In this document: positions 1 through 57,496 of the stretch, piece after piece
Layout: every line of letters begins with the position of its first letter
Position numbering within the stretch: position 1 is the first letter of the stretch
The notes under the pieces: model-generated
Database searches by the model: none
The model's input: the letters and a program-made list of their open reading frames with translations, nothing else
What the model was told of the DNA's origin: nothing
From: an uncultured bacterium
Lineage (GTDB): Bacteria > Hydrothermota > Tepidihabitantia > SM23-42 > JAOAFX01
NCBI GenBank assembly: GCA_964559225.1
Contig: CAZLGA010000002.1
Span: 11,837 to 75,836 of the forward strand
DNA length: 64,000 nt
Reading direction: 5' to 3'
Program-made: the position numbers and the translations under genes

Positions 1-320
1 TCAGGACAATATCCTTGTTTCACCGCATAATTCTTTATAGCATTAATAACTTCTGCAACACGAATACCCTGTGGACATCTTTCAGTGCAGGCATGGCAAT
101 GGGCACAGAGCCATAAGAATGGGGAAGAAAGAACTTCGGTTTTCATTCCCAACAAAGTGAGCCTGATTATCTTTCTCGGATTATACCGTTCATCCAGATA
201 CCGCACCGGACAACTTGCAGAACAATCACTGCAGCCAAAACATTTTAGTAAACCTTCGCCACCTTCGCTTTTGATAATTTTCCATTTAAAACTGATATCA
301 GCATTTCTTAAATCAATCAT
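1..320 (-). CDS. hdrC: Heterodisulfide reductase subunit C-like protein, 3' end truncated by the window edge. It is a second hdrC paralogue transcribed divergently from the NtrC-type regulator gene.
   Basis: Reverse-strand translation from ATG(320) gives MIDLRNADISFKWKIIKSEGGEGLLKCFGCSDCSASCPVRYLDERYNPRKIIRLTLLGMK...CAHCHACTERCPQGIRVAEVINAIKNYAVKQGYCP. This is collinear with, and highly similar to, the HdrC ORF at 6188-6682 (two CxxCxxCxxxCP motifs). An RBS ggaggcaatATG is present. Confidence 0.8.
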   Translation of the reverse strand, partial: MIDLRNADISFKWKIIKSEGGEGLLKCFGCSDCSASCPVRYLDERYNPRKIIRLTLLGMKTEVLSSPFLWLCAHCHACTERCPQGIRVAEVINAIKNYAVKQGYCP

Positions 321-1954: not shown

Positions 1955-3871
1955 ATGGCACTGTTTCAATTTAGCTCTCTAAGAACTAAACTTGCACTAA
2001 GTTACATAGTCGCTGTTGGTTTCGTTGGCATTTTGTGTGCGATGATTGGTATCGTCACCATCAATCAGGGCATTATCAATCAGGCACAGGATCGAGTGAG
2101 CGCGGATTTGAATGCAGCAGGTTATATATATAACCAGATTGCGTTACAAGTTTTGAATACCTGCAGATTTACTGCTTCAAGATTTTTTTTGAAGGAAGCG
2201 TTGGTAAGAAATGACCGGAAAATAATCGCTACTGAATTCCGCCGAATACTAAACACAGAAAAAATCGATTTTCTTTCCGTCATTAATACAAAGTGTATCG
2301 TTGTGGCCCGGGGCTCAACTTCGGACCGATCAAATGATACTGTTAATAATCGGCTAATTGAGCATGCAATAAAAACAAAGACTCCTGTCAGTGCTACAGA
2401 AATATTAACTGCTGAAGAATTATATAAAGAGAATCCTCTGCTAAAACAAAAGGCAGAAATCAGGATTTTGCCGACCACCCGTGCTAAGTTCCAGCGCACA
2501 GGTGTTGAGACTTCAGGATTGGTGATCATCGGTGCTGCGCCAATTCTTGATGAAAATGAAAACGTGATCGGAGTTGTGTATGCCGGTAAGTTGATAAACA
2601 ATAATTTTGAAATTGTCGACCGTATAAAAAATACTGTCTTTATGAGTGAACAGTATAAGGGAAAGGATATTGGAACATCAACCATATTTATGAGAGATTT
2701 AAGGGTTTCCACAAATGTGACAAATATTGATGGCTCAAGGGCAATAGGGACATTAATATCAAAGGAAGTATATGATGCAGTACTTGAAAAAGGTCAGACC
2801 TGGCTCGCTCGGGCATTTGTAGTGAAGGACTGGTACATTACTGCCTATAGACCCATAAAAAATTTTGCCGGGGAGACAATAGGTGTTCTTTATGTTGGAA
2901 TATTGGAAAAAAAATATACTGATATGCGGAATCAGGTCATTTTGTTTTTTGTCGGTCTCACAATCATTGCAATGCTTGCAGTGACTGGATTCTCGTATCT
3001 GCTTTCCGGTGCAATCACAAAATCACTTGGAGAGATTGCTTGTGCAGCACGAGAAATTGGAAAGGGGAATTTCCCAGAGAAGATAAACATCACAACTAAA
3101 GATGAGATAGCAGATTTAGCAAAGGCGTTCCAGTATATGATAGATTCAATAAAGAGACGCGATGAAGAGCTGAAAAGATATGCACAGCAGACCATCGCTG
3201 AAGCAGAAAGACTGGCGATAATTGGACAACTTGCTGCCGGAGTTGCCCACGAGATAAACAATCCTTTGACAGGTATCTTACTGTATTGTGACTTAATGTT
3301 GAAAAATCTTTCTGATGATCACCCTCATAAGAAGCATCTTCTGCGCATAAACAATGAAGCTCAGCGCTGTAAAATGATAGTCAAGGGTCTGCTTGATTAT
3401 GCCAGAGAGAAGAAGCTTGAGATAAAGAAAGCATCAATAAATGAATTAGTTGAATCAACATTGAGCCTGTTGAAAACGCAGCCAATCTTTCTTAATATAA
3501 ACACAAAGATTGAACTTGATGGGAATATCCCTCAAATAAATATGGACCCCGGGCAAATCCAGCAGGTATTGATAAATATTATAATGAATGCGGTTGAGGC
3601 GATGGAAGGAAAAGGCGATTTGATAATAAAAACAGAGTTTTCTGAGGATAAGAGCTTTGTCCTCATATCTATATCTGATACTGGTCCGGGAGTAAAACCC
3701 GAGTTTATGAAGAAAATCTTTGAACCGTTCTTTACAACCAAAGAAGCACGTCAGGGAGTTGGACTTGGACTTTCAATAAGCAAGAGAATAATTGAGGACC
3801 ACAAAGGAACTATTGAGATTGTTAGTGAGCAGGGCAAAGGCGCCACATTTAAGATAAGGTTACCAATTTGA
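1955..3871 (+). CDS. Sensor histidine kinase with a periplasmic Cache-like domain, HAMP, HisKA and HATPase domains.
   Basis: Two TM segments (res ~15-35 and ~325-350) flank a ~290-aa extracytoplasmic domain. HAMP follows. H-box LAAGVAHEINNPL. G-boxes DTGPGV and GVGLGLSISKRI. Confidence 0.9.
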   Translation: MALFQFSSLRTKLALSYIVAVGFVGILCAMIGIVTINQGIINQAQDRVSADLNAAGYIYNQIALQVLNTCRFTASRFFLKEALVRNDRKIIATEFRRILNTEKIDFLSVINTKCIVVARGSTSDRSNDTVNNRLIEHAIKTKTPVSATEILTAEELYKENPLLKQKAEIRILPTTRAKFQRTGVETSGLVIIGAAPILDENENVIGVVYAGKLINNNFEIVDRIKNTVFMSEQYKGKDIGTSTIFMRDLRVSTNVTNIDGSRAIGTLISKEVYDAVLEKGQTWLARAFVVKDWYITAYRPIKNFAGETIGVLYVGILEKKYTDMRNQVILFFVGLTIIAMLAVTGFSYLLSGAITKSLGEIACAAREIGKGNFPEKINITTKDEIADLAKAFQYMIDSIKRRDEELKRYAQQTIAEAERLAIIGQLAAGVAHEINNPLTGILLYCDLMLKNLSDDHPHKKHLLRINNEAQRCKMIVKGLLDYAREKKLEIKKASINELVESTLSLLKTQPIFLNINTKIELDGNIPQINMDPGQIQQVLINIIMNAVEAMEGKGDLIIKTEFSEDKSFVLISISDTGPGVKPEFMKKIFEPFFTTKEARQGVGLGLSISKRIIEDHKGTIEIVSEQGKGATFKIRLPI

Positions 3872-6187: not shown

Positions 6188-6682
6188 ATGAGCGATATTG
6201 AACCAAAATTCAAATATGAAGTCGCGCAGGAACCTGGTGGCGAGAAGATAAAACTCTGCTTTGCCTGTGGAATATGTACTGCAAGCTGTGCAGTGAGGGA
6301 AATTGACGAACGCTACAATCCCAGGAAGATAATAAGAATGATTCTTTTAGGTATGAAGAAAAGGGTTCTTGAGAATGAGTTTATTTGGTTGTGTTCGAGT
6401 TGTTACGCCTGCACTGAACGGTGTCCACAGGGTGTTCGGTTTACCGATGTTATGAATGCCATAAAAAATCTTGCAGTAAAACAGGGGTATGTCCCAAGTG
6501 CATTCATTCAGCAGATTGAAATCTTAAGAAATCTGGGAAGGCTCTATGAGATTGATGAATTTGACAATAACAAGAGAACAGCACTCGGGTTACCGAAGGT
6601 CTCAAAGGCTAAAGGATTTACACGGAAGATTATGGAGATAACAGGACTAATCAAGATTGTTAATAGAAAGAATGGACTGTAG
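6188..6682 (+). CDS. hdrC: Heterodisulfide reductase subunit C (4Fe-4S dicluster domain protein).
   Basis: CFACGICTASCAV and CSSCYACTERCPQ motifs. The end of the gene matches HdrC. Confidence 0.88.
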   Translation: MSDIEPKFKYEVAQEPGGEKIKLCFACGICTASCAVREIDERYNPRKIIRMILLGMKKRVLENEFIWLCSSCYACTERCPQGVRFTDVMNAIKNLAVKQGYVPSAFIQQIEILRNLGRLYEIDEFDNNKRTALGLPKVSKAKGFTRKIMEITGLIKIVNRKNGL

Positions 6683-6730
6683 GTTATCCGTTATTCTGAT
6701 AACCTTTTCTATGAAATGGAGTGTTAGATT

Positions 6731-7609
6731 ATGAAGTACGCATTTTTCCCTGGTTGTACGGTATTGGGTCGGGGCAGAAACTACGAGATGTCGGCAAGGG
6801 CGATTTCTTCGGTTTTAGGCATTGAGCTTATTGATCTTGATGATTTTGAATGTTGCGGCTTTCCGTTGAAATCGGTTCACTATGATACATATACGCTTAT
6901 GGCAGTAAGGAATATTTTTATTGCCGAAGAAAAGGGGTTTGATATCTGCACATTATGCAGTGCCTGCACTGGCTCACTTACGGAGGTCAACAGACATTTC
7001 AATGAAAATTTTGATGAAAAAGCCAAGGTTGTAGCACAACTGAGGAAAAGTGGAATTGAATTGAGAGTCAGCAAACCAGTAAGAGTAAAACACTTGATAA
7101 AAATTATTTATGAAGAGGTCGGGTTGGAAAAATTAGAAAAATCAATAAAGAAAAAGTTATCAAATCTTGCTCTTGCACCACATTACGGTTGTCATTACCT
7201 AAAACCTTCAGACATTTATGAGCCATCAGAAGATCCTGAGAATCCGAAATCCCTGGATGAATTGATCAGTGTTACTGGTGCACGAGTCGTCAATTATTCA
7301 GAGAAATTGAGATGTTGTGGGGCAGGTATCCTTGCGGTTAATGAAGATACCGCATATTTAATGACTCAACCGAAATTGAGAGAACTGACAAGAAATTCAG
7401 CTGATGCAATGGTTCTGATGTGTCCATTTTGCAGTGTGATGTATGATGATAATCAGAAGAAAATTGAACAGAAGTTTCAGGAACAGTACAATCTTCCCGT
7501 TCTCTATTACCCACAAGTGCTTGGGCTGGCAGTGGGATTAGAACCGAAAGCTCTTGGATTACAGATGAACAGGGTATCAACGCGGACACTGTTGGAGAAA
7601 ATAAAATGA
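6731..7609 (+). CDS. hdrB: Heterodisulfide reductase subunit B (two CCG cysteine-rich domains).
   Basis: CCG motifs ECCGFPL and LRCCGAG, flanked by CxxC-type segments (CTLCSACTG; CPFCSVM). Confidence 0.88.
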   Translation: MKYAFFPGCTVLGRGRNYEMSARAISSVLGIELIDLDDFECCGFPLKSVHYDTYTLMAVRNIFIAEEKGFDICTLCSACTGSLTEVNRHFNENFDEKAKVVAQLRKSGIELRVSKPVRVKHLIKIIYEEVGLEKLEKSIKKKLSNLALAPHYGCHYLKPSDIYEPSEDPENPKSLDELISVTGARVVNYSEKLRCCGAGILAVNEDTAYLMTQPKLRELTRNSADAMVLMCPFCSVMYDDNQKKIEQKFQEQYNLPVLYYPQVLGLAVGLEPKALGLQMNRVSTRTLLEKIK

Positions 7610-7675: not shown

Positions 7676-10600
7676 ATGAATACATCTGATCAAAAAGTTG
7701 GTGCTGTCTTGGTCATTGGTGGTGGTATAGGGGGGGTCCAGGCATCTCTGGACCTTGCCGATTCTGGATTCAAAGTGTATTTGCTTGAAAAGTCCCCAAG
7801 CATTGGTGGTGTGATGGCACAACTTGATAAAACATTCCCAACCAATGATTGTTCAATGTGTATATTAGCGCCAAAACTTGTCAGTGCGGGCAGACATCCG
7901 AATATTGAATTAATAACCTATGCTGAACTTGAAAGTATCCAGGGCGAACCTGGTGAGTTCACGGTTCGTATTCTAAGAAAATCGCCATTTGTTGATTGGG
8001 ATAAATGTAATGGGTGTGGTGTATGCTGGGGAAAGTGTCCAATAAATACTCATTCTGATTTTGAATGTGGCCTGGGAAAGAGAAAGGCGATATATGTTCC
8101 GTTCCCACAGGCAGTCCCGAATAAAGCAGTTATTGATAAGGAACACTGCACATATTTCGTAAAGGGTGGTAAATGTCGGGTGTGTCAGATTCTTTGTCCA
8201 GCAAAGGCAGTAGATTTCAATATGCCTGATAAGATGATTGATATAAGTGTAGGTAGCATAATAATAAGTAGTGGCTTAAAAACTTTTGATCCTCATTTGA
8301 AAACAGTTTTTGGTTATGGTAAATATGCAAATGTAATAAAATCTATTGAGCTGGAAAGAATCTTGAACGCCTCGGGTCCGTTCCAGGGGCATCTTGTAAG
8401 ACCTTCAGACCGAAAGGAACCACAAAAACTGGCATTTATTCAATGTGTTGGTTCCAGGGATATAAAATCAGGTAATGCATATTGCTCATCAGTTTGCTGT
8501 GTATATGCAATAAAAGAGGCAATTCTAATGAAGGAGCATAATCGGTCACTTGATTGCACGATATTTTATATGGATATGAGAACATTTGGAAAGGGGTTTG
8601 AAGCATACTACAAAAGGGCAAAAGAAAAATATGGAATAAAATTTAAGCGGGCAATGGTTGGAGAAATCACTGAGTTGTCCGAGAGCAAGAATTTATTGGT
8701 CAAATATGAAGATGAGGACGGCAATCTCAATAGAGAAAATTTTGATATGGTTATTCTGTCTGTTGGACTGAGACCCGATGAAAACGCAAAAAAACTTGCT
8801 GAAATTTTGAATTTAGAATTATCCGAATTCAATTTTGTAAAATCTATTCCTTTTTCGCCGATTGAGACAGCCCAACCAGGTATATTTGTATGCGGAACCG
8901 CTTCGTCACCCAAAGATATTCCAGAAACAGTTACCGAAGCGAGCGCTGCGGCGCAGAAGGCGATTGAATTGATAAAAGAAGAAAGGCATAAACTTACGAG
9001 AAAGGTTGAATATCCTGGCGAGATTGATGTTTCGGGTGAACAACCCCGTATAGGTGTCTTTGTCTGTCATTGTGGCATAAATATTGCTGGAACAGTAAAG
9101 ATAATGGAAGTTGTTGAATATGCAAAAACATTACCGAATGTTGTATATGCAGAAAATAATCTTTATTCCTGTTCTGATGATTCCCAGCAACATATAAAAG
9201 AGATGGTTGAAAAACATAAACTGAACAGGGTTGTAGTGGCTGCATGCACACCAAGAACTCACGAACCTTTATTCCAGGAGACGATAAGAGAAAAAGGATT
9301 GAATAAATTTTTATTAGAATTTACAAATATACGAGACCAGTGCTCCTGGGTTCATTCGCAGGAACCAGAACAAGCCACTGAAAAGGCAAAAGACCTTGTT
9401 AGAATGGCGTGCGCGAGGGCAAGCCATTTGGAAGCGTTGCCAACGATTACTATTCCGGTTACACAGAGTGGGCTTATTATCGGCGGTGGTATCAGTGGAA
9501 TGAATGCAGCACTGAGCCTTGCAAATCAGGGATACAAGGTTTATCTTGTGGAAAAACAGGGAGAGCTTGGTGGAAATGCCCGGCATCTAATCTACACAAT
9601 TGATGGCAGGAATATAAAAGAATATTTGGATTCACTGATACAAAAAGTGGAGACACATCCTGATATCACGGTTCATAAGAACAGCAATATTGAATCAGTA
9701 AACGGATATATTGGTAATTTTCAGACGAGAGTAAAGAAGCAAGAAGCAGGAAATAAGAAGCAGGAAATAATTGAGATTGAACACGGCGTGATAATCATTG
9801 CAACCGGGGCTACAGAATACAAACCAGTTGAATATCATTATGGTAAGGATCCGAGAATAATTACTCAGAGAGAACTTGAAAAATTTCTATTTGACCATCA
9901 AACTATCACACCATCAGACTATAAGACGGTTGTCATGATTCAATGCGTTGGTTCACGCGATAACGAAAGAAAATATTGCAGTCGCATCTGTTGTTCTGAG
10001 GCGATAAAAAATTCCTTGCTTATTAAACAGAAGAATCCTGAAACCGAAGCCATTATATTTTATAAAGATATGAGGACGTATGGACTTAATGAGATATTCT
10101 ATCAAAAGGCAAGGGATGCTGGTGTTGTATTCATAAGATATGATGACGAGTTTAAACCTGAGATTTCTTCTCATAATGGTAAGCTTGTTGTTAAGGCAAG
10201 AGAGCCGATACTGAATGAGGAAATTGAATTACCAGCAGATCTCGTTGTTCTGTCTGCAGGAACTGTTCCGAATGAATCAAACAGGGAGATCGCCCAGTTG
10301 CTAAAAGTGCCTTTGAATGAAGATGGATTTTTTCTTGAGGCGCATATGAAACTTCGTCCGGTTGACTTTGCTACAGATGGAATATTTATTTGTGGTATGG
10401 CGCATTCACCAAAGACAATTGATGAGTCCATTGTTCAGGCTCAGGCAGCAGCATCAAGGGCAGGGATAGTTCTTTCAAAAGACACAATTGAAGTCCTGCC
10501 AGCAGTTGCCAAAGTGGATGCGGAAAAATGCATTGGTTGTGGAATTTGCGAGACGTTATGTGCTTATCAGGCACACGAGTTAAAAAAGACTGATAAGGGT

Positions 10601-10729
10601 TATCGTTCAGAAGTCATTTCCGCTTATTGTAAGGGCTGTGGTAGTTGTGCAGCGTCCTGCCCCCAGCATGCGATACTGATGAAACATTTCACAAATGACC
10701 AGATAATGGCAATGGTGGAAGCAGTATGA
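7676..10729 (+). CDS. hdrA: Large HdrA-like flavoprotein (1017 aa) with two FAD/NAD(P)-type Rossmann modules and ferredoxin-type clusters. The architecture is HdrL-like.
   Basis: N-terminal VIGGGIGGVQASLDLA. HdrA hallmark Cys clusters (CNGCGVCWGKCP; CRVCQILCP; CVGSRD...YCSSVCC). A second dinucleotide fold IIGGGISGMNAALSLA at ~res 600 with its own CVGSRD...YCSRICC segment. C-terminal 2x[4Fe-4S] (CIGCGICETLC...CKGCGSCAASCPQ). Confidence 0.88.
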   Translation: MNTSDQKVGAVLVIGGGIGGVQASLDLADSGFKVYLLEKSPSIGGVMAQLDKTFPTNDCSMCILAPKLVSAGRHPNIELITYAELESIQGEPGEFTVRILRKSPFVDWDKCNGCGVCWGKCPINTHSDFECGLGKRKAIYVPFPQAVPNKAVIDKEHCTYFVKGGKCRVCQILCPAKAVDFNMPDKMIDISVGSIIISSGLKTFDPHLKTVFGYGKYANVIKSIELERILNASGPFQGHLVRPSDRKEPQKLAFIQCVGSRDIKSGNAYCSSVCCVYAIKEAILMKEHNRSLDCTIFYMDMRTFGKGFEAYYKRAKEKYGIKFKRAMVGEITELSESKNLLVKYEDEDGNLNRENFDMVILSVGLRPDENAKKLAEILNLELSEFNFVKSIPFSPIETAQPGIFVCGTASSPKDIPETVTEASAAAQKAIELIKEERHKLTRKVEYPGEIDVSGEQPRIGVFVCHCGINIAGTVKIMEVVEYAKTLPNVVYAENNLYSCSDDSQQHIKEMVEKHKLNRVVVAACTPRTHEPLFQETIREKGLNKFLLEFTNIRDQCSWVHSQEPEQATEKAKDLVRMACARASHLEALPTITIPVTQSGLIIGGGISGMNAALSLANQGYKVYLVEKQGELGGNARHLIYTIDGRNIKEYLDSLIQKVETHPDITVHKNSNIESVNGYIGNFQTRVKKQEAGNKKQEIIEIEHGVIIIATGATEYKPVEYHYGKDPRIITQRELEKFLFDHQTITPSDYKTVVMIQCVGSRDNERKYCSRICCSEAIKNSLLIKQKNPETEAIIFYKDMRTYGLNEIFYQKARDAGVVFIRYDDEFKPEISSHNGKLVVKAREPILNEEIELPADLVVLSAGTVPNESNREIAQLLKVPLNEDGFFLEAHMKLRPVDFATDGIFICGMAHSPKTIDESIVQAQAAASRAGIVLSKDTIEVLPAVAKVDAEKCIGCGICETLCAYQAHELKKTDKGYRSEVISAYCKGCGSCAASCPQHAILMKHFTNDQIMAMVEAV

Positions 10730-10934: not shown

Positions 10935-11693
10935 ATGTCTGATTTTCAACCACGGATTCTTGGGTTTTTATGCAACTGGTGTTCTTATGCAGGTGCCGAC
11001 CTTGCGGGTGTATCAAGAATTCAGTATCGCCCGAATATCAGAGTGATAAGAGTGATGTGTTCGGGTAGGGTTGATCCAGTTTTCATAGTTAATGCTTTTT
11101 TGAGAAAAATTGATGGTGTTATGGTACTGGGTTGTCATTTTGGCGATTGCCATTATCTGAACGGCAATTATAATGCTGAAAAAAGGATTGTTGCTGCACA
11201 AGAGCTTTTGGCTTTTACCGAAATTGCAAAGGATAGACTATACTTAGATTGGGTATCTGCAGCAGAAGGCGAAAGGTTTGCAAATCTCGCAAACACATTC
11301 GTAAACAAAATTAGGGACATCGGTCCGATAACTATCTCAGAGCAGACCGAAGCAATGCTTTTATCGGTCAGAGATGTGCTCCAGAGTGAACTATTTAGAC
11401 ACCTGACTGGTGTGGAGTACCAGATAACCGAGAGAGAGAATGCCTATGGTGAGAAGATTCCGGCTGAGGATTTCAAGAAGAAGTTAGGTGGAATACTTTA
11501 CCAAGAGTATATTAGGGCACGCATATGTCGCTTACTGAAGAGCAACTATTATACAGTACCTGAAATTGCTCGAATTCTCAATATCGCGCCGGACCTTGCA
11601 TTTGAAAGTGTCTGTTCATTGCAGGAAAAAGGTAGTGTTTCAATGATAGAAATAAGAAATGAATATCCGATATATGGAGCTAACAAATCATAA
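10935..11693 (+). CDS. mvhD: MvhD-like protein (methyl-viologen-reducing hydrogenase delta-subunit family) fused to a ~120-aa C-terminal extension that has the look of a winged helix-turn-helix.
   Basis: N-terminal ~130 aa LGFLCNWCSYAGADLAGVSRIQYRPNIRVIRVMCSGRVDP...GCHFGDCHY is collinear with the MvhD ORF at 14980-15384. The C-terminal tail ...YTVPEIARILNIAPDLAFESVCSLQEKGSVSMIEI resembles a wHTH recognition helix plus wing. Confidence 0.8.
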   Translation: MSDFQPRILGFLCNWCSYAGADLAGVSRIQYRPNIRVIRVMCSGRVDPVFIVNAFLRKIDGVMVLGCHFGDCHYLNGNYNAEKRIVAAQELLAFTEIAKDRLYLDWVSAAEGERFANLANTFVNKIRDIGPITISEQTEAMLLSVRDVLQSELFRHLTGVEYQITERENAYGEKIPAEDFKKKLGGILYQEYIRARICRLLKSNYYTVPEIARILNIAPDLAFESVCSLQEKGSVSMIEIRNEYPIYGANKS

Positions 11694-11836
11694 TCCAAGA
11701 GTTAATAAAGATTTATGGGTTGAGGTTGGGATGCGGCTCTTTTTGAACCACTTAACCAATTACCATTTAACCAAAATATACCAGTTTATCAGCCCCAATC
11801 AAGCAACTATTCCCGGACATTTTGAAGGATACATAT

Positions 11837-14800
11837 ATGAATAAGATTGGTGCAGTCATGGTCGTGGGTGGCGGTATCGGCGGTATCCAGGCATCTCTTG
11901 ACCTGGCGAATTCTGGGTTCAAAGTCTATTTACTGGAGTCCGCCCCGGCAATAGGCGGAATAATGGCAATGCTTGATAAGACATTTCCGACAAATGATTG
12001 TTCAATGTGCATAATGGCACCTAAACTTGTTGAATGTGCACGCCATCTCAATATAAAAATTATTCCCGACGCAAGAATTGAAAGGCTTAGCGGTGGAGCG
12101 GGAAATTTTATTGTCAGGGTGCGGAAGAAAGCAAGATATGTAGATACTACAAAGTGCACAGGCTGTGGTGAATGCCGGAAACACTGTCCGATTGAAATCG
12201 CTGATAGATTTAATCAGGGATTGACAAAGAGAAAGAGTATTTATATTGACTATCCACAGGCTGTCCCCGCAGTATACGCGATTGATAAGAACAATTGTCT
12301 TGGATGTGGGGTATGTGAAAAGATATGTCTTGCTGGTGCAGTTAAATATAAAGATAGTGACACAATAGAGGACCTGAATGTTGGTTCAATAATTCTTTCT
12401 TCTGGTTCAGACGCATTTTACCCGAAGGGTTATACAAATTTTGGTTATGGTATTTATAAGAATGTTGTTACAAGCCTTGAATTTGAGCGTATTCTATCTG
12501 CTTCAGGCCCGTTTTCCGGGCATTTGCTCAGACCTTATGAAGGAAAGGCGCCAAAGAGGATTGCCTTTATTCAGTGTGTTGGTTCAAGAGACCCGCAAGC
12601 AGGGAAGGGATATTGTTCTTCAGTTTGCTGCACCTATGCGATAAAAGAAGCAATAATTGCAAAAGAGCACTCAAAGAATGGACTTGAAGCTACGATATTC
12701 TTTATGGATATCAGGACATTTGGTAAGGGCTTCGAAGATTATTATAATCGTGCCAAGAATGAATACGGTGTAAGATTTGTTCGTGCTGGTGTATCCAAAA
12801 TAGAAGAGGTTCCTGAGACGAATAACCTCATAGTGCATTACGAAGATGAAGAAGGCAAGATTATAGAAGAAGAATTTGACATGGTGATACTCTCTGTTGG
12901 TCTTGTCCCGAAGCAGGATACTGCTCAAATGGCAAGATGCTTGCGGCTTAAGCTGAATACTTATGATTTCTGTAAGACCTCTGAATTTATTCCAGTTGAC
13001 ACGATACATGACGGAATATTCGTTTGTGGTGCATTTGCGGGTCCCAAAGACATTCCTGAAACTGTTGCCCAGGCTTCTGCTGCTGCAGGTAGGGCAATGG
13101 CTTTGTTGTCTGAATCCCGGGGTAGTTTAATTGTCAGGAAAGAATATCCTCAGGAATTAGATGTATTAAATGAGAAGCCACGCATAGGAGTTTTTGTTTG
13201 CCACTGCGGAATAAATATTGGTGGGTACGTAAATGTGCCTGAGGTTGTAGAATACACAAAACAATTGCCAGATGTAGTATTTGCAGATAACAATCTTTAT
13301 ACCTGTTCCCAGGATACGCAGAAGAGAATAATTGAAAAAATCAGAGAGCATAACCTGAACCGGATTGTTGTTGCTTCGTGCACTCCGAGAACCCATGAGC
13401 CACTTTTCAGAGAGACCATTCGTGAGGCAGGTTTGAACCAGTATCTATTTGAGATGGCAAATATCCGCGACCAATGCAGTTGGATTCATATGAATGAACC
13501 ACAACCTGCAACTCAAAAAGCAAAGGATTTGGTGAAGATGGCGGTCTCAAAGGCAAGGTTACTTATGCCTTTGAAAAGGGTTGAAATTGATGTAATTCAG
13601 AAAGCGCTTGTTGTTGGTGGTGGTATTGCAGGTATGAGTTCTGCACTTCTGCTTGCGGAACAGGGATTTGAAGTTGTTCTTGTTGAGAAGGAAAAAGAAC
13701 TTGGTGGTAATCTACGACATATACACCGGACATTAGAAGACAGAGATGTACAGGATTTTTTGAAGAAGACGGTTGAAGCAGTAAGCAAAAGTAAATTGAT
13801 AAAGGTGTACACAAATGCTCGGATTGAAGATATAACAGGCTTTGTGGGGAATTACAAAACACGTATTAAAATTGGGGGGTTGGAGGCGGAAAGTGAGAAA
13901 CTGGAACAAAAGCAAGTGGAAATTGAACATGGGGTAGTCATTGTTGCAACCGGGGCTCAAGAATACAAACCCACAGAATATCTCTATGGTAAGGACCGAC
14001 GGATAATCACCCAGAAAGAACTTGAAAGAGTTATTTTTGACGATCAGACCATCAGACTGTCAAACTATGAGACTGTTGTCATGATTCAATGCGTCGGTTC
14101 GCGCGATAACGAAAGAAAATATTGCAGTCGTATATGCTGTTCTCAGGCAATAAAGAATGCCTTAAATCTTCTTGAAATAAACCCTGATACGAACATCTAT
14201 ATTATTTACAAAGATATCCGTACCTATGGATTCAAAGAAGAATTATACCGCGAGGCAAGAGGAAAAGGTATTGTCTTTATTAGATATGATGATACAAGAA
14301 AGCCAGAACTAAAAAACGAAAATGGAAAATTTAAAATAAAGGTCTTTGAACCGATTTTGAAAGAAGATTTGATAATAGATGCTGACTTGATTGTTCTTTC
14401 TTCTGGTATTATTGCAGATCCGAACAATAAAACCCTCGCAAAAATGCTAAAAGTTCCTTTGAATAGTGATGGTTTCTTCCTTGAAGCCCATGTTAAGCTA
14501 AGACCGGTTGACTTTGCAACCGAAGGTGTATTCGTAGCAGGAATGGCGCATAGTCCGATGACTATCGCTGAATCTATTACACAGGGACAGGCAGCAGCAG
14601 CACGTGCTACAACTATTTTAGCAAACAAAAAATATTATGCGGAAGCAACTGTTTCTTCAGTTAATGAAGAACTATGCGCAGGTTGCGGTATGTGTGGGGC
14701 ATTGTGTCCTTACGAGGCAATAATATATAAAGAAAAAGATGGCAAGAAAATTTCCAGTGTTAATGAGGCATTGTGTAAGGGCTGTGGGACCTGCGTTGCT

Positions 14801-14875
14801 GCTTGTCCTTCTGGTGCAATAGTTCAGTATGGTTTTACAAAAAAACAGATAATCGCAATGGTGGAAGCAATATGA
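11837..14875 (+). CDS. hdrA: Second large HdrA-like flavoprotein, a paralogue of 7676-10729. The ORF track starts at a TTG at 11822; ATG 11837 has a better RBS.
   Basis: Collinear with the first copy: VVGGGIGGIQASLDLA; CTGCGECRKHCP; CVGSRD; VVGGGIAGMSSALLLA; C-terminal CAGCGMCGALCPY...CKGCGTCVAACPS. About 75% identical over the first ~75 aa by eye. Confidence 0.88.
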   Translation: MNKIGAVMVVGGGIGGIQASLDLANSGFKVYLLESAPAIGGIMAMLDKTFPTNDCSMCIMAPKLVECARHLNIKIIPDARIERLSGGAGNFIVRVRKKARYVDTTKCTGCGECRKHCPIEIADRFNQGLTKRKSIYIDYPQAVPAVYAIDKNNCLGCGVCEKICLAGAVKYKDSDTIEDLNVGSIILSSGSDAFYPKGYTNFGYGIYKNVVTSLEFERILSASGPFSGHLLRPYEGKAPKRIAFIQCVGSRDPQAGKGYCSSVCCTYAIKEAIIAKEHSKNGLEATIFFMDIRTFGKGFEDYYNRAKNEYGVRFVRAGVSKIEEVPETNNLIVHYEDEEGKIIEEEFDMVILSVGLVPKQDTAQMARCLRLKLNTYDFCKTSEFIPVDTIHDGIFVCGAFAGPKDIPETVAQASAAAGRAMALLSESRGSLIVRKEYPQELDVLNEKPRIGVFVCHCGINIGGYVNVPEVVEYTKQLPDVVFADNNLYTCSQDTQKRIIEKIREHNLNRIVVASCTPRTHEPLFRETIREAGLNQYLFEMANIRDQCSWIHMNEPQPATQKAKDLVKMAVSKARLLMPLKRVEIDVIQKALVVGGGIAGMSSALLLAEQGFEVVLVEKEKELGGNLRHIHRTLEDRDVQDFLKKTVEAVSKSKLIKVYTNARIEDITGFVGNYKTRIKIGGLEAESEKLEQKQVEIEHGVVIVATGAQEYKPTEYLYGKDRRIITQKELERVIFDDQTIRLSNYETVVMIQCVGSRDNERKYCSRICCSQAIKNALNLLEINPDTNIYIIYKDIRTYGFKEELYREARGKGIVFIRYDDTRKPELKNENGKFKIKVFEPILKEDLIIDADLIVLSSGIIADPNNKTLAKMLKVPLNSDGFFLEAHVKLRPVDFATEGVFVAGMAHSPMTIAESITQGQAAAARATTILANKKYYAEATVSSVNEELCAGCGMCGALCPYEAIIYKEKDGKKISSVNEALCKGCGTCVAACPSGAIVQYGFTKKQIIAMVEAI

Positions 14876-14979: not shown

Positions 14980-15384
14980 TTGATGTCTAATTTCAAACCC
15001 AAAATAATCGTCTTCTGCTGCAACTGGTGTTCTTATGCGGGTGCTGACCTTGCAGGGGTATCAAGGCTACAAATGAACCCCAATTTTCGGGTAATAAGGA
15101 CTATGTGTTCAGGAAGGATAGAACCAGAGTTTATATTAACTGCATTCACAAAAGGGGTAGATGGTGTATTAATCACTGGATGCCATCCTGGTGACTGTCA
15201 TTATATTTCAGGTAATTATAAAACCTTGAGGCGGTATAATGCATTAAAATTACTCTTAAAAGAAATGGGTATTGATGATAGACGCCTTAAATTAGAATGG
15301 ATTTCTGCAGGGGAGGGGGCAAGATTTCAGGAGGTTATAAATAACTTCATAAAAACTATTTCCGAACTTGGACCCAAAGATTAA
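14980..15384 (+). CDS. mvhD: MvhD-like protein (134 aa, no C-terminal extension).
   Basis: IVFCCNWCSYAGADLAGVSRLQ...RVIRTMCSGRIEP...GCHPGDCHY. Confidence 0.85.
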   Translation: MMSNFKPKIIVFCCNWCSYAGADLAGVSRLQMNPNFRVIRTMCSGRIEPEFILTAFTKGVDGVLITGCHPGDCHYISGNYKTLRRYNALKLLLKEMGIDDRRLKLEWISAGEGARFQEVINNFIKTISELGPKD

Positions 15385-31886: not shown

Positions 31887-32048
31887 GAAAGTTCACACTG
31901 TCTTAAACCAATAACCACGCCTGTTCAAAGAGCAGGGGTCAGGACTAAAACAGTCTGGTCTTTCTGGTCTATTTAGTCTGTTTGGTTTATCTGGTTTCAT
32001 AACTACTTTCGCTACCATAATCATTCTAATTCTGCTGTAGCAGAATCA

Positions 32049-32066
32049 AAAATAAACACCTTTTCC
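32049..32066. repeat. Perfect 18-nt palindrome attctgcTGTAGCagaat. It shares the TGTAGC core with the repeat family below.
   Basis: Seen directly; self-complementary. Confidence 0.5.
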
Positions 32067-32446
32067 ACTACCAGTTTTTTTTCACTAATTAACAATTTTA
32101 TCAACTAAACCTGAGGGAAGATGATTTGAATTTAATTCCTTTACGGGTTCACAGAGAAGAACCCTGAAAGGTTATTTTTTTATTGTTCATAACATTGGTT
32201 GTATTTATTATAAAGGAGATTATAGAGAAATTGAAGATCATAGTGCCTGAAAGTTTGGGAATTTAGGTAAGTGCAGAAATTTCAAAAATGCGCACACCTA
32301 TTTTGGGGAGTTCTGTTTATTACCATATTTTTTGGAATGAAAATAGCACAAATCTGACACAAGAGGGGGTCAGCAATAGCCTGCCCGTCTGAAAAGATGC
32401 CTTGATGAAAAAAGGATTGTGTGGGTGGAATAAACTAATTCCAGAT

Positions 32447-32511
32447 TGTAGCGTCCAGATTTATCTGGACCGAATAGTTTTTTCGTCCATCTAAAGATGG
32501 ACGCTACAGAT
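32447..32511. repeat. Compound head-to-head pair of TGTAGC hairpin elements (REP/MITE-like small palindromic repeats).
   Basis: TGTAGCGTCCAGAtttaTCTGGACcgaatagttttttCGTCCATCTaaAGATGGACGCTACA. The outer TGTAGCGTCC and GGACGCTACA arms are inverted complements, with two inner hairpins. Confidence 0.6.
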
Positions 32512-32590
32512 GCAATACCTAAATTTACTTTGCCTTCGTAGGTGGTAAACACACTTTTCCATTGACAAACTGCAAAAATTTGATAAACTT

Positions 32591-35500
32591 ATGTATATGC
32601 CAGACGATTTAAGGAAGACTATCATTGAAAGGCTTAAACCTCTTTTTGTTCAGTATGATTCAAGTTTTAAAGATTTTTTATCCATAGGTCAAAAAATTGA
32701 TGATGGGCTTCAAACAAATTCAGAAATTTTGAGTGGAATCCCTCATAGATTTAATAACCTCTCGGCAACTGTAGAACTCGTTCTTGAAGGTGTAGATGTA
32801 TTTGATACTGAAATCAAGAAGATGCACGAATTTCTGAAAAAAAGTATTGAGAATTTTAAAGAATCAGTGCTGATATCAGAAAAAATAAGTTCGGATCTTA
32901 ATAATATCGCAGAGGTTTTAAAGCAAATTCAACGCGGTATTAGGAATCTTGCAGAGATTATTTATAATATCAATTTTGTTTCCGAATCAATAGAGGTTGC
33001 CTCAAGAAATGCGGGAATAACTGCTTTTCATGCTGGCAGAGAGGGAAGGGGTTTTGAGGTAATTGCACGAGAGATGACAGTTCTGGCGCGCAATGTCCAG
33101 GGACCGACAAAAGTTATTCCTGTAGTATCTAACGAATTATTAAGAAATATTGATGAATTAAATCAAGATTTAAAAAAGATTCAAGATGTAATTACATATT
33201 TAAGAGAGATTGGTGAAAAGTTTTTGACTATCAATAACGAATTGCTCACCTTGATTCCGGAGCTTGAAAATTCTATAAGGGATATATCTAATAGTATATC
33301 TGTCCAGAAGGATTTGCATATAAATTTGCAAAAAGAAAGTGATAAGTTGTCTGAATATCTTGGTGATATTTATCGTATCATTAGAACAACCGCAATAACA
33401 GAAATGTTTTTAGGTGCATTTTTTCAGCACCTTAATAATTTAAAAAACAACTTGATGATTGCCGAAGACGAACAGAATTTTTATTATATCTTCAATAGCA
33501 TAAAACAGGTATTGGATAATGAACCAAAATTAGAGGGAGGACATGAGGAATTTTTCAATGTTGCATTAAAAAAGCTTGAAATGCATACTTCAGAAAGATT
33601 GATATTACAGTTTATTTCGGAAGCAAAACATCTCAACGAAGTAATAGGAGTAATATCTGAAAGAATAAAATCCTGGACAAAAACCCATAATTTTGCAAAT
33701 GAAGCATTGACCCGTGCCAAAGTTTTTTATAAGGATATTAGTGAATTACTTTGTTCTTTGAATGAAAAATCAAATAACTTAAAGAAACTTATTAATAAAG
33801 TAGAAAGGCCGGTTCAGGAATTAAAAAGGATATCTGAACGTTCGCGTCTTTTGGGTTTATATGCGGGTATTGAAAGTGCACGCAGTGGAAAATATGCTGA
33901 AGCACTCGGGGTTGTTACTAATGAAATTAAGACGCTTTCAATGAGGTCCTCTGAATTCGTTGGAAGCGTTGACTCGGTTGTTGGAGAGATATTGAAGAAT
34001 ATAAATTATCTCATTTCGTGTTTTTCCCGAACTACTGAAGATGTTGAATTGGGTGTAGCGTCTCTAACTATCTCAATGGAGGCAGTTGGTGAGAGCGGTA
34101 AAGTTCTTGATAACATTACAGCTCTTTCGCAAGAAATGTTGTCTTCTACGATGGAAATGGTAAATCAGTGTGGAATGCTTGGAGAACACTACCGGAATTT
34201 TGATACTGAATACCACAAAATAGGTGAATATTTTTCTTCCTATGGAACGACAATAAAATCAGGTGAAGAATTAACAAAGCAAATGAAGACAATTATAAAT
34301 GAGTTCAAAAAAGAGATTTCTCTGCTTACAACCAAGAGGAAGAAGATAGTATTGCGTGCGACTGAAGACCCAATAACACTTGACCCGGCAATAAAAACAG
34401 ATACTACAAGCCATCAGGTAATTGAACAAATATTTACCGGGCTCTATACCTTTGATCAGTTTAACCGATTGATTCCCGGTGTCGCATTATCATTCACAGT
34501 ATCTGAAGACGGAAAGGTTTGGGATTTCCATCTTAAAAAAGGGGTGAAATTTCATAATGGAAAAGAAGTGCAAGCAAAGGATATTTTGTTTTCACTGGAT
34601 AGGGTTAAAAAGGGTCCTAATGCAAATTTTATAGAGTATCTAAACGAGATGGTTGTTATTGACCCTTACCATATAAGGTTTATACTGAAATTTCCTTATA
34701 TTCCGTTTCTTGCAAACCTTGCCTGTGGTGTATGTGATATAGTTCCTTCAGACTTTAATCCAGATAAGCCGGTGGGTTGTGGTCCATATAGACTTGTTTC
34801 TTATGAAAAGAATAACGAAATTGTTCTTGAGGCTTTTGATGAATTCTATGACGGCAGACCACCGATTGATGAATGTGTGATTAAAACCGTCCGAGACGAC
34901 AGGGAAGCGATTGAATTATTTAAAAATGGTGAAATTTCTATCCTTGATTTAACCCCGGATATGCTACAAGAATTTTCGCAGGAAGGAATTTATACGGGTC
35001 CTGCCCTATCTACTCAGTATCTTGCTATAAACTTTTCTAAAAAAAATCCATTTTTTGATTTAAATGTGCGAAGAGCAATGAATTACGCTATTGATCGCGA
35101 CTATTATTGTCGCACATTGTTGAAAGGAAAAGCAATCCCCGCATTTGGAGTATATCCACCCGGACTTCCTGGATATAATAGAAATCTTCAGGTTTATCAA
35201 TATGATATCAAAAAAGCTCGGGATTTAATGCGCCAGGCAGGATTCGGGGGTGGAATTCCAGAGGAATTCGTCTTTGATGTCCGGGCAGGGGTTGATACAG
35301 TCAAAAGGGCAGAATTCATAAAAGATTCGTTTGCCAAGATTGGTATCCATCTACAGATAAATCCCCTGCCCTGGAAAGAGTTTCTTGATAAAACATATAG
35401 TGGAAATAGTGTGCTCAGTCTGAGGGGGTGGGTATCGGACAACGGTGACCCAGATAATTTTGTCTATACACTATTTCATTCAAAGAATTTTGGAGCGAGT

Positions 35501-35740
35501 GGCAACACCTCTTTTTATGCTAATGAAGAACTTGATAAAATGATTGAGTCAGCCAGGGCTGAACAGATTCCAAGACGAAGAATTGAACTATATCAAAAGA
35601 TAGAAAATTTTATTGTGGAGAATGCGCTCTGGGTTTTCATTTCCCACGGAGTCGATTGCTACGCCGTTCAAAAGAATATAAAGGGGTTTACAGTTGACCC
35701 TTTTGGTTTGGTCCGTTTTCGCAACCTATTTTGCTTATAA
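32591..35740 (+). CDS. Soluble chimeric receptor: two tandem methyl-accepting-chemotaxis-protein signalling modules (N-terminal ~590 aa) fused to a C-terminal ABC solute-binding-protein family-5 (OppA/DppA/NikA-type) domain.
   Basis: MCP conserved-domain motifs SESIEVASRNAGITAFHAGREGRGFEVIAREMTVLARN and SERSRLLGLYAGIESARSGKYAEALGVVTNEIKTLS. C-terminal EDPITLDPAIKTDTTSHQVIEQIFTGLYTFDQ...SEDGKVWDFHLKKGVKFHNGKEV is a textbook SBP_bac_5 N-lobe. No signal peptide or TM segment is evident. Confidence 0.75.
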   Translation: MYMPDDLRKTIIERLKPLFVQYDSSFKDFLSIGQKIDDGLQTNSEILSGIPHRFNNLSATVELVLEGVDVFDTEIKKMHEFLKKSIENFKESVLISEKISSDLNNIAEVLKQIQRGIRNLAEIIYNINFVSESIEVASRNAGITAFHAGREGRGFEVIAREMTVLARNVQGPTKVIPVVSNELLRNIDELNQDLKKIQDVITYLREIGEKFLTINNELLTLIPELENSIRDISNSISVQKDLHINLQKESDKLSEYLGDIYRIIRTTAITEMFLGAFFQHLNNLKNNLMIAEDEQNFYYIFNSIKQVLDNEPKLEGGHEEFFNVALKKLEMHTSERLILQFISEAKHLNEVIGVISERIKSWTKTHNFANEALTRAKVFYKDISELLCSLNEKSNNLKKLINKVERPVQELKRISERSRLLGLYAGIESARSGKYAEALGVVTNEIKTLSMRSSEFVGSVDSVVGEILKNINYLISCFSRTTEDVELGVASLTISMEAVGESGKVLDNITALSQEMLSSTMEMVNQCGMLGEHYRNFDTEYHKIGEYFSSYGTTIKSGEELTKQMKTIINEFKKEISLLTTKRKKIVLRATEDPITLDPAIKTDTTSHQVIEQIFTGLYTFDQFNRLIPGVALSFTVSEDGKVWDFHLKKGVKFHNGKEVQAKDILFSLDRVKKGPNANFIEYLNEMVVIDPYHIRFILKFPYIPFLANLACGVCDIVPSDFNPDKPVGCGPYRLVSYEKNNEIVLEAFDEFYDGRPPIDECVIKTVRDDREAIELFKNGEISILDLTPDMLQEFSQEGIYTGPALSTQYLAINFSKKNPFFDLNVRRAMNYAIDRDYYCRTLLKGKAIPAFGVYPPGLPGYNRNLQVYQYDIKKARDLMRQAGFGGGIPEEFVFDVRAGVDTVKRAEFIKDSFAKIGIHLQINPLPWKEFLDKTYSGNSVLSLRGWVSDNGDPDNFVYTLFHSKNFGASGNTSFYANEELDKMIESARAEQIPRRRIELYQKIENFIVENALWVFISHGVDCYAVQKNIKGFTVDPFGLVRFRNLFCL

Positions 35741-49639: not shown

Positions 49640-49698
49640 TGTAATTTCCCATTATTATCGTCCGAATGAATTTGGAGGCTACAATTAAAAAAGTTCTT

Positions 49699-49726
49699 CT
49701 GTAGCGTCCAACTTTAGATGGACGAG
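49699..49726. repeat. TGTAGC hairpin element copy (TGTAGCGTCCAACTTTAGATGGACG). It matches the reverse complement of the second half of the 32447 element at 24 of 25 positions.
   Basis: Seen directly. Confidence 0.55.
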
Positions 49727-49738
49727 TATTTTTTAACA

Positions 49739-50242
49739 CTACTCTCCCCAGACAATCGTTCCTTTATTTGCAAGATTATATACCTCTGCCTCAAGAATTG
49801 TCTGATGCCTCTTTTCATCCTCAGCCAGTTGTTCAAATAACTTTTTACCTTCCCGGTCTTTTATACTTTTTGCAATCTTCAAATATCTGGACATCGCCAT
49901 TTTTTCCGCCTTTATCCCGATATTCAAAACATCAATAATCTCATCCTTATTTGGTTCAAAATCTCCTGATACCTCGGGCTTTATATTTTTTGATGCCGGG
50001 GCAAAGCGCGAAAGGTCTATGGCTGTTTTACCCTTACGGGCTTCAATAATGTTATGGATATATTCGTAATGCCTTGCCTCAAATCCAGCAAGTTCTAAGA
50101 ATAGCTTTTTTCCTGCTTCACTCTGTGCCTTTCCTGCGGCATCAGTATAGAAATCCTGTGCCTTTTTTTCCGCTATTAGGGCACTTGTAAGTAGTCTGTT
50201 TATACTCGTTACTTTCCTCTTTGTTGTTTTTTTCTTTTTCAT
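49739..50242 (-). CDS. Ferritin-like / rubrerythrin-family diiron protein, with no rubredoxin domain.
   Basis: E...EARHYEY and E..EKRH paired motifs. 167 aa. Lys-rich N-terminus. Confidence 0.65.
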   Translation of the reverse strand: MKKKKTTKRKVTSINRLLTSALIAEKKAQDFYTDAAGKAQSEAGKKLFLELAGFEARHYEYIHNIIEARKGKTAIDLSRFAPASKNIKPEVSGDFEPNKDEIIDVLNIGIKAEKMAMSRYLKIAKSIKDREGKKLFEQLAEDEKRHQTILEAEVYNLANKGTIVWGE

Positions 50243-54266: not shown

Positions 54267-54293
54267 TTGTAGCATCCAGATTTATCTGGATGC
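54267..54293. repeat. TGTAGC hairpin element copy (TGTAGCATCCAGAtttaTCTGGATGC), 24/25 identical to the first half of the 32447 element. A partial CGTCCAG unit follows at ~54303.
   Basis: Seen directly; perfect palindrome. Confidence 0.6.
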
Positions 54294-54368
54294 TTAAATA
54301 GTTCGTCCAGTTAAAACTGAACACTGCATTAATTGTTCTGCTGATTAATGCGGAAAACTGCAGAGAAT

Positions 54369-54785: not shown

Positions 54786-54909
54786 TTATTGTAGCATCCA
54801 TTCCTGATTTTCATCAACATTACCACATATTTCGCACTTAAATATTTGACCGACACTGGTCACATTTGCCATATTACCTCCTTGAGATTATCTATTTATA
54901 TGCATCATT

Positions 54910-57117: not shown

Positions 57118-57214
57118 TTAAGCCACCCATTATTCGGGAGTTAAGCCGTAAGGCTTTTATTGTAGAATTCATACGAATTAACTTTAGAAAACCTTCTTTG
57201 AAATTCAAAAAATA

Positions 57215-57496
57215 TCACTGCAATAAATCCTTTATTTCCTTTTCTTTAAATCCCACGATACATTTCTCGTTATTAAATACTATTGTTGGAAAAGAGCAGG
57301 CTGGGTTCCATTTCTCTACCTCTTTTTTTATCTTCCCTTTATCATCGCCGTTTAGCAAATCTACATAGATATAGTCAAATTCTACACCAAGTTTTTCTAA
57401 CAATTCTTTTGTTTTTTTACACCAGATACAGGTGCTCAATGCATAGAGCATAATTTTGCCTTTATTTATGCCCGGAACATGTTTGATTTCAACCAT
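57215..57496 (-). CDS. Glutaredoxin-like / NrdH-like small thioredoxin-fold protein.
   Basis: LYALSTCIWCKKTKELLEKLGVEF gives a CxxC in a thioredoxin fold. 93 aa. Confidence 0.75.
   Translation of the reverse strand: MVEIKHVPGINKGKIMLYALSTCIWCKKTKELLEKLGVEFDYIYVDLLNGDDKGKIKKEVEKWNPACSFPTIVFNNEKCIVGFKEKEIKDLLQ

Follow-up and report, generated by a model that had tools for sequence, protein, structure and literature searches.

REPs are small palindromic DNA parasites or passengers that are usually copied by a domesticated transposase (RAYT), and good descriptions of REP/RAYT systems exist for Proteobacteria and for a small number of other phyla. In the GTAG super-family, a palindromic unit of 20-50 nt follows a conserved GTAG tetranucleotide (PMC8266576, PMC3733652). 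GTAG REPs fall into sub-families distinguished by complementary stem changes, form heterodimers and predominantly dimers with the GTAG ends outside, are found between unidirectional or convergent genes, and flank RAYT genes (PMC3733652). The group 3 RAYTs cleave REPs that are short perfect palindromes, a reaction for which the GTAG is needed, a loop base is critical, and perfection of the stem matters (PMC8266576); the REP of the 'group 3' REPtron of Stenotrophomonas maltophilia, REP_Sm, is 23 nt long with an 8-bp stem and a 3-nt loop (PMC8266576). RAYT acts on the folded single strand, and both binding and cleavage of single-stranded cognate REPs by RAYT have been demonstrated in three pairs only, those of E. 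coli, S. maltophilia, and Marinomonas (PMC8266576).

The 64-kb stretch of DNA analyzed here, referred to as the window, contains six copies of a 25-nt unit, arranged as three intergenic doublets at 32447-32508 (A), 49659-49724 (B), and 54268-54328 (C). A covariance model built from 69 distinct unit copies, the copy at 54304-54328 not among them, identified exactly these six units in the window with filters off (E-values between 8e-9 and 4e-5, compared with 0.5 for the next match). The sequence TGTAGCGTCCA, with one mismatch allowed, occurs six times in the window vs. an expected 0.38, and none of 100 shuffles reached six. Doublet A (TGTAGCGTCCAGATTTATCTGGAC-cgaatagtttttt-CGTCCATCTAAAGATGGACGCTACA) is a heterodimer with its GTAG ends outside ('HH') and a 12-nt spacer: the left arm, 32447..32471 (+), has the middle stem AGA/TCT (TGTAG-CGTCCAGA-TTTA-TCTGGACc; 38.9 bits, E=9e-8), and the right arm, 32484..32508 (-), has ATC/GAT (TGTAG-CGTCCATC-TTTA-GATGGACG; 43.2 bits). 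Doublet B has its GTAG ends inside ('TT') and comprises a degenerate left unit at 49659..49683 (-) (TGTAGCcTCCaAATTCATTcGGACG; 31.7 bits, E=6.5e-6) and a unit with one stem mismatch at 49700..49724 (+) (TGTAGCGTCCAaCTTTAGaTGGACG; 38.4 bits). Doublet C, with GTAG ends outside, has a left arm at 54268..54292 (+) (TGTAGCATCCAGATTTATCTGGATG; 38.9 bits), in which a pair at the base of the stem has changed from G-C to A-T with compensation, and a decayed right arm at 54304..54328 (-) (TGcAGtGTtCAGTTTTAACTGGACG; 28.7 bits, E=3.7e-5). There is also an 11-nt remnant of a REP head, TGTAGCATCCA, at 54790..54800 (+). The window gave no match to Rfam at gathering thresholds, and a tRNA/tmRNA scan of it found none.

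A prior sequence-only reading had described repeated TGTAGC hairpin units at several intergenic sites. These are real and have the sequence described, being the six covariance-model units and the one remnant. The copies exist, three of them one or two nucleotides from where they had been placed (49700 rather than 49699, 54268 rather than 54267, and 54790 rather than 54788). The 24/25 identity attributed to the copies applies only to 32447 vs. 54268, the 49700 copy being 76% identical over the same 25 nt. The copy reported near 49699 is present, its degenerate partner at 49659-49683 had been overlooked, and site B is also a doublet. A palindrome, attctgcTGTAGCagaat, that had been listed as a relative at 32049 is found at 32029-32046 and was rejected as a family member: it lacks the CGTCC hairpin and has only the hexamer TGTAGC in common with the units. 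The statement that the repeats are not a CRISPR array is correct, as the units occur in inverted pairs and their three sites are separated by 17 kb and 4.6 kb.

The unit consists of T-GTAG directly abutting the hairpin CGTCC-xyz-TTYA-z'y'x'-GGACG, a perfect stem of 8-9 bp. Across the 69 distinct units, the GTAG, the stem base (CGTCC/GGACG), and the loop (TTYA) are at least 90% conserved; G2 is invariant, and T3, A4, G5, and C6 are each conserved at 90% or more. Paired cells amount to 94.4% in the 69 units vs. 76% in shuffles, with none of 500 shuffles as high, and controls with slid partners pair at 25-39%. The three middle pairs (11-20, 12-19, and 13-18) each exhibit three to four Watson-Crick types, five of the eight stem pairs have changes on both sides, and at least 13 complementary combinations of the middle pairs were found, including AGT/ACT, ATC/GAT, AGA/TCT, CGA/TCG, ACC/GGT, and GAC/GTC. 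Since the rule used to select units fixed the head and the last five bases and left the middle pairs free, covariation of the middle pairs is an independent signal of hairpin maintenance, and the hairpin of the unit is under selection. The copies form a clean natural mutagenesis series that separates the fixed hairpin positions from the free ones. A looser scan for GTAG plus any hairpin was too noisy, with 2.3 hits per shuffled window, and was superseded by the head-plus-tail rules and then by the covariance model. The combination of 5' GTAG, an 8-9 bp perfect stem, and a 2-4 nt loop is that of the GTAG REPs (Di Nocera et al. 2013, PMC3733652) and of the group 3 REP_Sm, and it differs from the REPs of E. 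coli, which are longer and whose activity depends on an imperfect stem with a bulge (PMC3479197).

Arrangement was counted in 208 units defined by a head-plus-hairpin rule, of which 73 are singletons; the others make up 46 doublets and a small number of larger clusters. Among 77 adjacent pairs, the commonest orientation places GTAG outside (40 pairs, with spacers mostly of 6-14 nt), and 18 have GTAG inside. Nearly all doublets are heterodimers in which one arm is usually of the ATC/GAT type, and site A of the window (AGA + ATC) is typical. They are two inverted REPs with a short spacer, as in a REPIN or BIME. When site A (32440-32515) was folded as single-stranded DNA, one long imperfect hairpin formed from either strand (z=-6.6 and -7.5), as do the inverted doublets of the REPIN-RAYT systems of Pseudomonas fluorescens and E. 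coli (Bertels & Rainey 2011, PMC3116915; Bertels et al. 2017, PMC5581495). The inverse heterodimers of two subtypes, with GTAG and an HUH/Y1 enzyme bearing HxH and Tyr, also resemble the E. coli BIMEs (REP Y/Z) and TnpA_REP (Ton-Hoang and Messing 2012, PMC3479197). Unlike the P. fluorescens and E. coli REPINs, the arms here nearly always differ in the three middle stem pairs, and unlike the Pseudomonas REPINs, where spacers are conserved, spacers vary between loci. Doublets that are identical including the spacer were found at two loci of contig L038 and on both sides of the RAYT gene in L083, and three similar doublets were found in the Kamch bin23 MAG, spacers being mostly unlike between loci. 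These cases lend weak support to the doublet as a possible replicating unit, given that the spacers are in general short and variable between loci.

To place the family in other genomes, one genome per species (GTDB) was scanned for the strict pattern TGTAGCRTCCANNTTTANNTGGAY. The scan returned 79 loci (given L numbers here), approximately 67 of them in nine related MAGs that are mostly labeled WOR-3 or 'Elusimicrobia CG1_02_37_114'; in one MAG the strict pattern matches 22 times, spread over 21 contigs, and in others 10-13 times. The unit is also present, with the ACC/GGT middle, in a few Acidobacteriota and Eremiobacterota MAGs. The covariance model found 177 units in 516 kb of motif-containing loci, a density biased upward because the loci were chosen for containing the motif, as against six units at three sites in the 64 kb of the window. 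Nucleotide identity between the window and three of the nine MAGs is 71-84%, which indicates that the window comes from the same lineage as those MAGs and from none of those species. The hosts, namely WOR-3-like bacteria, Acidobacteriota, and Eremiobacterota rather than Proteobacteria, and the very short spacers of ~6-14 nt distinguish the family from described GTAG REPs. As far as checked, the stem and loop sequence of the family is new; in the literature searched, the figure of the 24 published GTAG families aside, the motif turned up only in what look like primers or other unrelated uses, and no paper was found that links REPs to WOR-3.

Several irregularities were seen among the related loci. 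Contig ends or runs of N often adjoin units, e.g., L023 4-28, L031 1-24 and 56-80, L032 14-38, and L058 10-68; the repeats probably break short-read assemblies of these MAGs, so that copy numbers from MAGs are probably underestimates. At five loci of the Kamch4342 bin23 MAG (L047, L053, L054, L065, and L073), the ~25 nt upstream of the units are conserved (ggtaagtttttcccaaaaa) and the doublet spacers are nearly the same, and the repeated element in that MAG may be longer than the doublet. A longer element proposed from flank conservation in L017, L039, L046, and others was rejected, because the flank encodes the C-terminal end, itself conserved, of secreted proteins that are paralogs. The REP head is partially duplicated in tandem (tgtagcgtccaactga twice before a full unit) at L012 ~3815-3860, L020 1936-1975, and L071 1439-1485, and among these cases a GTAGGTAGTA-like microsatellite abuts a unit. 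These irregularities may be due to replication slippage or may be aberrant RAYT products.

The sequence-only reading had suggested a check for association with a RAYT or IS200-like gene. Leads were obtained by tblastn with RAYT and IS200 queries, and every resulting match was re-tested with Pfam and NCBIfam models. Y1_Tnp genes (PF01797) with units on both sides were found in L027 (Acidobacteriota MAG) and L037 (WOR-3 MAG). With the frameshift-corrected L037 protein as query, a close clade at 47-74% identity was recovered, followed by a drop to ~40%. The four clade members in contigs L080-L083 are all flanked by family units; units on both sides of the Y1 gene were confirmed in L081-L083, and the L080 gene extends to the contig end. 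RAYT genes flanked by cognate units are therefore present in six related genomes (L027, L037, L080, L081, L082, and L083), the arrangement of a RAYT gene between cognate REPs being that of a REPtron. Against the NCBIfam model of the REP-associated tyrosine transposase (NF047646, cutoff 80), three proteins (P0003, P0004, and that of L027) pass, with scores of 97.1, 88.1, and 99.5 bits among them, and the clade member P0014 scores 71.8 bits, under the cutoff. The HxH motif (H69, H71), the catalytic Tyr (Y113), and NPVR are invariant in the RAYT alignment. The frameshift in the L037 RAYT gene could reflect a pseudogene or a low-coverage assembly error. Two more distant RAYTs, at ~40% identity, are flanked by GTAG REPs of different sequence, as expected of co-evolving pairs. 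No RAYT was found in the 64-kb window by tblastn with the clade's own proteins (best E=0.6), and the hdr-like genes of the window are only ~35% identical paralogs of the RAYT-bearing locus described below.

The repeats of the window are, very probably, GTAG-type REPs, mostly in inverted doublets (REPIN/BIME-like), belonging to a WOR-3-like family that would be maintained by a RAYT encoded outside the window. The 25-nt unit has the tag, the maintained hairpin, and the predominantly extragenic location that are characteristic of a GTAG REP, and the family shares with the GTAG REPs of Di Nocera et al. (2013, PMC3733652) the complementary-change sub-families, the heterodimers with GTAG outside, the extragenic location between unidirectional genes and near ORF 3' ends, and the RAYT gene flanked by units. 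The sequence-only reading's proposal of REP or MITE-like elements is thereby borne out: the units have a 5' GTAG and a short perfect palindrome, are dispersed and mostly extragenic in many related genomes, and form inverted doublets, and in six related genomes they flank a gene whose product scores as a RAYT and not as an IS200 transposase under the NCBIfam models. Neither confinement to the window nor confinement to coding sequence, either of which that reading had named as refuting it, was found, the motif being dispersed and mostly extragenic in relatives. The protein-binding or RNA-processing sites that it had offered as alternatives are not needed as the primary explanation.

The genomic location of the units bears on whether they are host RNA elements first, i.e., terminators, stabilizers of mRNA 3' ends, or processing sites in operons, so that the family would have been selected at many gene ends. 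All six units of the window are intergenic and lie between co-directional genes. Site A precedes a che cluster and sites B and C are among rubrerythrin, peroxiredoxin, and superoxide reductase (SOR) genes. The unit of site B at 49700..49724 is ~15 nt past the stop of a rubrerythrin-like gene, 49739-50242(-), and doublet C falls in the spacer bounded by the SOR stop (54369) and the rubrerythrin start (54184); sites B and C are 15-41 nt past stop codons inside co-directional clusters. Crude ORF calls account for 87% of the sequence of the related loci, and 68% of the units are outside them; many units are 0-60 nt from an ORF end, and many of the 'coding' units reflect ORFs over-extended through units, which in some frames are open and translate to RPSKDGRY, VASDFSRT, and similar. 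The window's rubrerythrin is on record in five contigs; the two retrieved were uninformative contigs of ~1 kb from metagenome assemblies. RNA roles have been reported for E. coli REPs, and GTAG REPs are mostly downstream of ORFs (PMC3733652); an RNA role is also compatible with the REP/RAYT explanation. However, there is no sense-strand intrinsic terminator at any unit of the window, the lone call (49705-49724, +) being antisense to its neighbors and the scan giving no terminator-like call at site A, and the orientation of singletons relative to the upstream gene is unbiased (18 same, 15 opposite). Doublet A precedes the MCP-SBP gene (32591) by 83 nt and follows the stop of a Peripla_BP_6 gene by ~560 nt, with a promoter-like site just downstream of it. 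Nor does an RNA role alone account for the way units cluster around RAYT genes or for a GTAG tag that is conserved although unpaired. We consider it unlikely, although with some claim to attention, that the units are RNA elements first. As a secondary host effect of REPs at sites B and C, it is possible that the hairpins stabilize or attenuate mRNA 3' ends in co-directional clusters.

The che cluster 3' of site A comprises genes for an MCP-SBP fusion, CheW, CheY, CheA, and CheC. The first of these genes, 32591-35740 (+), encodes an unusual fusion of 1049 aa with an MCP signaling domain and a C-terminal family-5 solute-binding protein domain; a look-up of this protein gave no existing record. 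The intergenic region upstream of it, 31887-32590, is long (~700 nt) and has no Rfam match.

If the flanking enzyme were a classical multi-copy TnpA rather than a domesticated RAYT, the units could be miniature IS200/IS605 derivatives (PATE/MITE). The enzyme does have the Y1_Tnp fold (PF01797) common to IS200 TnpA, and subterminal hairpins are typical of IS200/IS605 ends. Yet it passes the RAYT equivalog model, and all tested proteins fail the IS200 model NF033573, scoring 27-37 bits vs. a cutoff of 55. No tnpB is adjacent to the RAYT in the L080-L083 contigs, and the 5' GTAG tag is the REP signature (PMC3733652, PMC8266576). The gene also occupies one conserved chromosomal site in four WOR-3-like genomes (L037, L080, L081, and L082), which is not transposon-like: it lies between an HdrD-like gene of 382 aa and a Fer4 gene of 156 aa, in an operon with the order HdrA-like, FlpD, 23S_rRNA_IVP, HdrD-like, RAYT, Fer4, CCG, and the four syntenic RAYT proteins are 55-74% identical. 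An IS200/IS605 origin of this kind is very improbable. The shared position in the hdr-like operon of four genomes instead points to vertical inheritance of a domesticated RAYT, as judged from gene order and protein sequence. In this fixed RAYT position, and in having copies that are gained, lost, and decaying, the family is like the REPIN-RAYT systems of P. fluorescens and E. coli (PMC3116915, PMC5581495).

A second type of Y1 transposase is encoded in the MAG CG1_02_37_114, at L042 3-488 (-), beside an (A)GACCTGACCCCAT motif that recurs at L030 3865 and L052 991 of the same MAG. This L042 Y1_Tnp was rejected as the cognate enzyme: it is of another type, lacks flanking units, and is bordered by a GGGGTCAG-type sequence, as in the 'TIRYT' class of the literature, whose terminal-repeat consensus is GGGGWSAS (PMC3733652). 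The GGGGTCAG sequence, which is the reverse complement of the GACCTGACCCCAT motif, fits that consensus. In a separate observation, translated REPs extend the annotated RAYT proteins of the L037, L080, L081, and L082 loci spuriously at the N or C terminus. The RAYT homolog P0007 has a 41-residue insert (NENRRPTEVGRYGVRNRPTEVASRFSGTKNRPTEVGRYDGR) at ~95-135 of the alignment that resembles translated REP units, and REPs may have inserted in-frame into the P0007 RAYT gene itself.

Under the REP/RAYT explanation, family upkeep would be due to a single-copy, vertically inherited RAYT (HUH/Y1) whose gene lies outside the window. By analogy with the published systems, the RAYT would bind the folded single-stranded hairpin, would require the GTAG tag for cleavage, and might excise or copy units or doublets into new intergenic sites, after which new copies would decay via mutation and deletion. 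RAYT-dependent copying followed by decay is taken as the mechanism because the fixed tag, stem base, and loop, together with the compensated middle, match the published model; we infer catalysis by RAYT on the family units from the published RAYT/REP pairs.

Units have been gained or lost between orthologous loci. Doublet C is present in the window and missing from the orthologous spacer of the MAG QZM1.Bin.83 (L004), and a doublet in L028 has no counterpart in the window at 57118-57228. Conversely, L004 has an intact doublet where the window keeps only the 11-nt remnant at 54790, which confirms as a true remnant the partial unit that the sequence-only reading had placed near 54788. The gene order in L004 is an intact 42-aa desulforedoxin (Desulfoferrod_N), the REP doublet, and a gene for an LMW phosphotyrosine phosphatase/ArsC-like protein. 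In the window, at 54786-54885 (-), the desulforedoxin ORF is cut to 28 aa (MANVTSVGQIFKCEICGNVDENQEWMLQ*), its second Cys pair is gone, and it ends within the remnant, which is at the deletion junction; the LMW phosphatase gene, present in L004, is gone from the window. The desulforedoxin truncation was probably caused by a deletion with one end inside the REP. REP-associated gain, loss, and deletion, including this truncation, have thus taken place within an oxidative-stress gene cluster. That the units are operator sites of a DNA-binding regulator, e.g., of an oxidative-stress or chemotaxis regulon, is very improbable. In its favor, the units are intergenic palindromes, ROS-defence genes are the setting of two of the three sites in the window, and one site is ~55 nt upstream of a promoter-like site. 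Against it, the neighbors of the unit in more than nine genomes are unrelated genes, changes in the middle of the palindrome are compensated, which is the behavior of a hairpin rather than of a sequence-specific duplex operator, orthologous intergenic regions differ in the presence or absence of the unit, sites B and C are at gene 3' ends, and units pile up at RAYT genes.

A further proposal concerns the age of the REP family. The GTAG tag, the CGTCC/GGACG stem base, and the TTYA loop are kept across WOR-3-like, Acidobacteriota, and Eremiobacterota MAGs whose RAYTs are only ~40% identical, whereas other RAYTs at a similar distance have quite different REPs. The unit with the ACC/GGT middle beside a ~40% identical RAYT hints at a lineage that is either old or transferred. 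It is conceivable, if on balance rather improbable, that this is an unusually old, conservative REP-RAYT lineage in which the variable middle and the doublets with two middles are a possible selected device; the differing middles might prevent doublets from folding into perfect cruciforms, or they might set sub-populations apart. Were this reading true, the family would be well suited to studying what the enzyme recognizes in a REP and the persistence of REPIN populations outside Proteobacteria. Finding such a system is not in itself surprising, and what is documented here is a REP family with its cognate RAYT in the uncultivated, little-studied WOR-3 lineage. The family also explains spurious ORFs in these MAGs, where translated REPs are appended to annotated proteins, and probably assembly breaks.

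Elsewhere in the window, an ORF of 1017 aa is tandemly duplicated at 7676-10729 and 11822-14875 (+), with a period of ~4146 nt and 70-77% nucleotide identity, and each copy is followed by an ORF matched by an FlpD/MvhD protein (10935-11693 and 14980-15384). The region 6188-7609 holds a Fer4 gene and a CCG gene, both hdr-like as judged by tblastn. An inverted repeat of 105 nt with 75% complementarity, 9-113 vs. 6386-6490, reflects an inverted paralog of the Fer4 (HdrC-like) gene, the two copies being at 3-302 (-) and 6188-6682.
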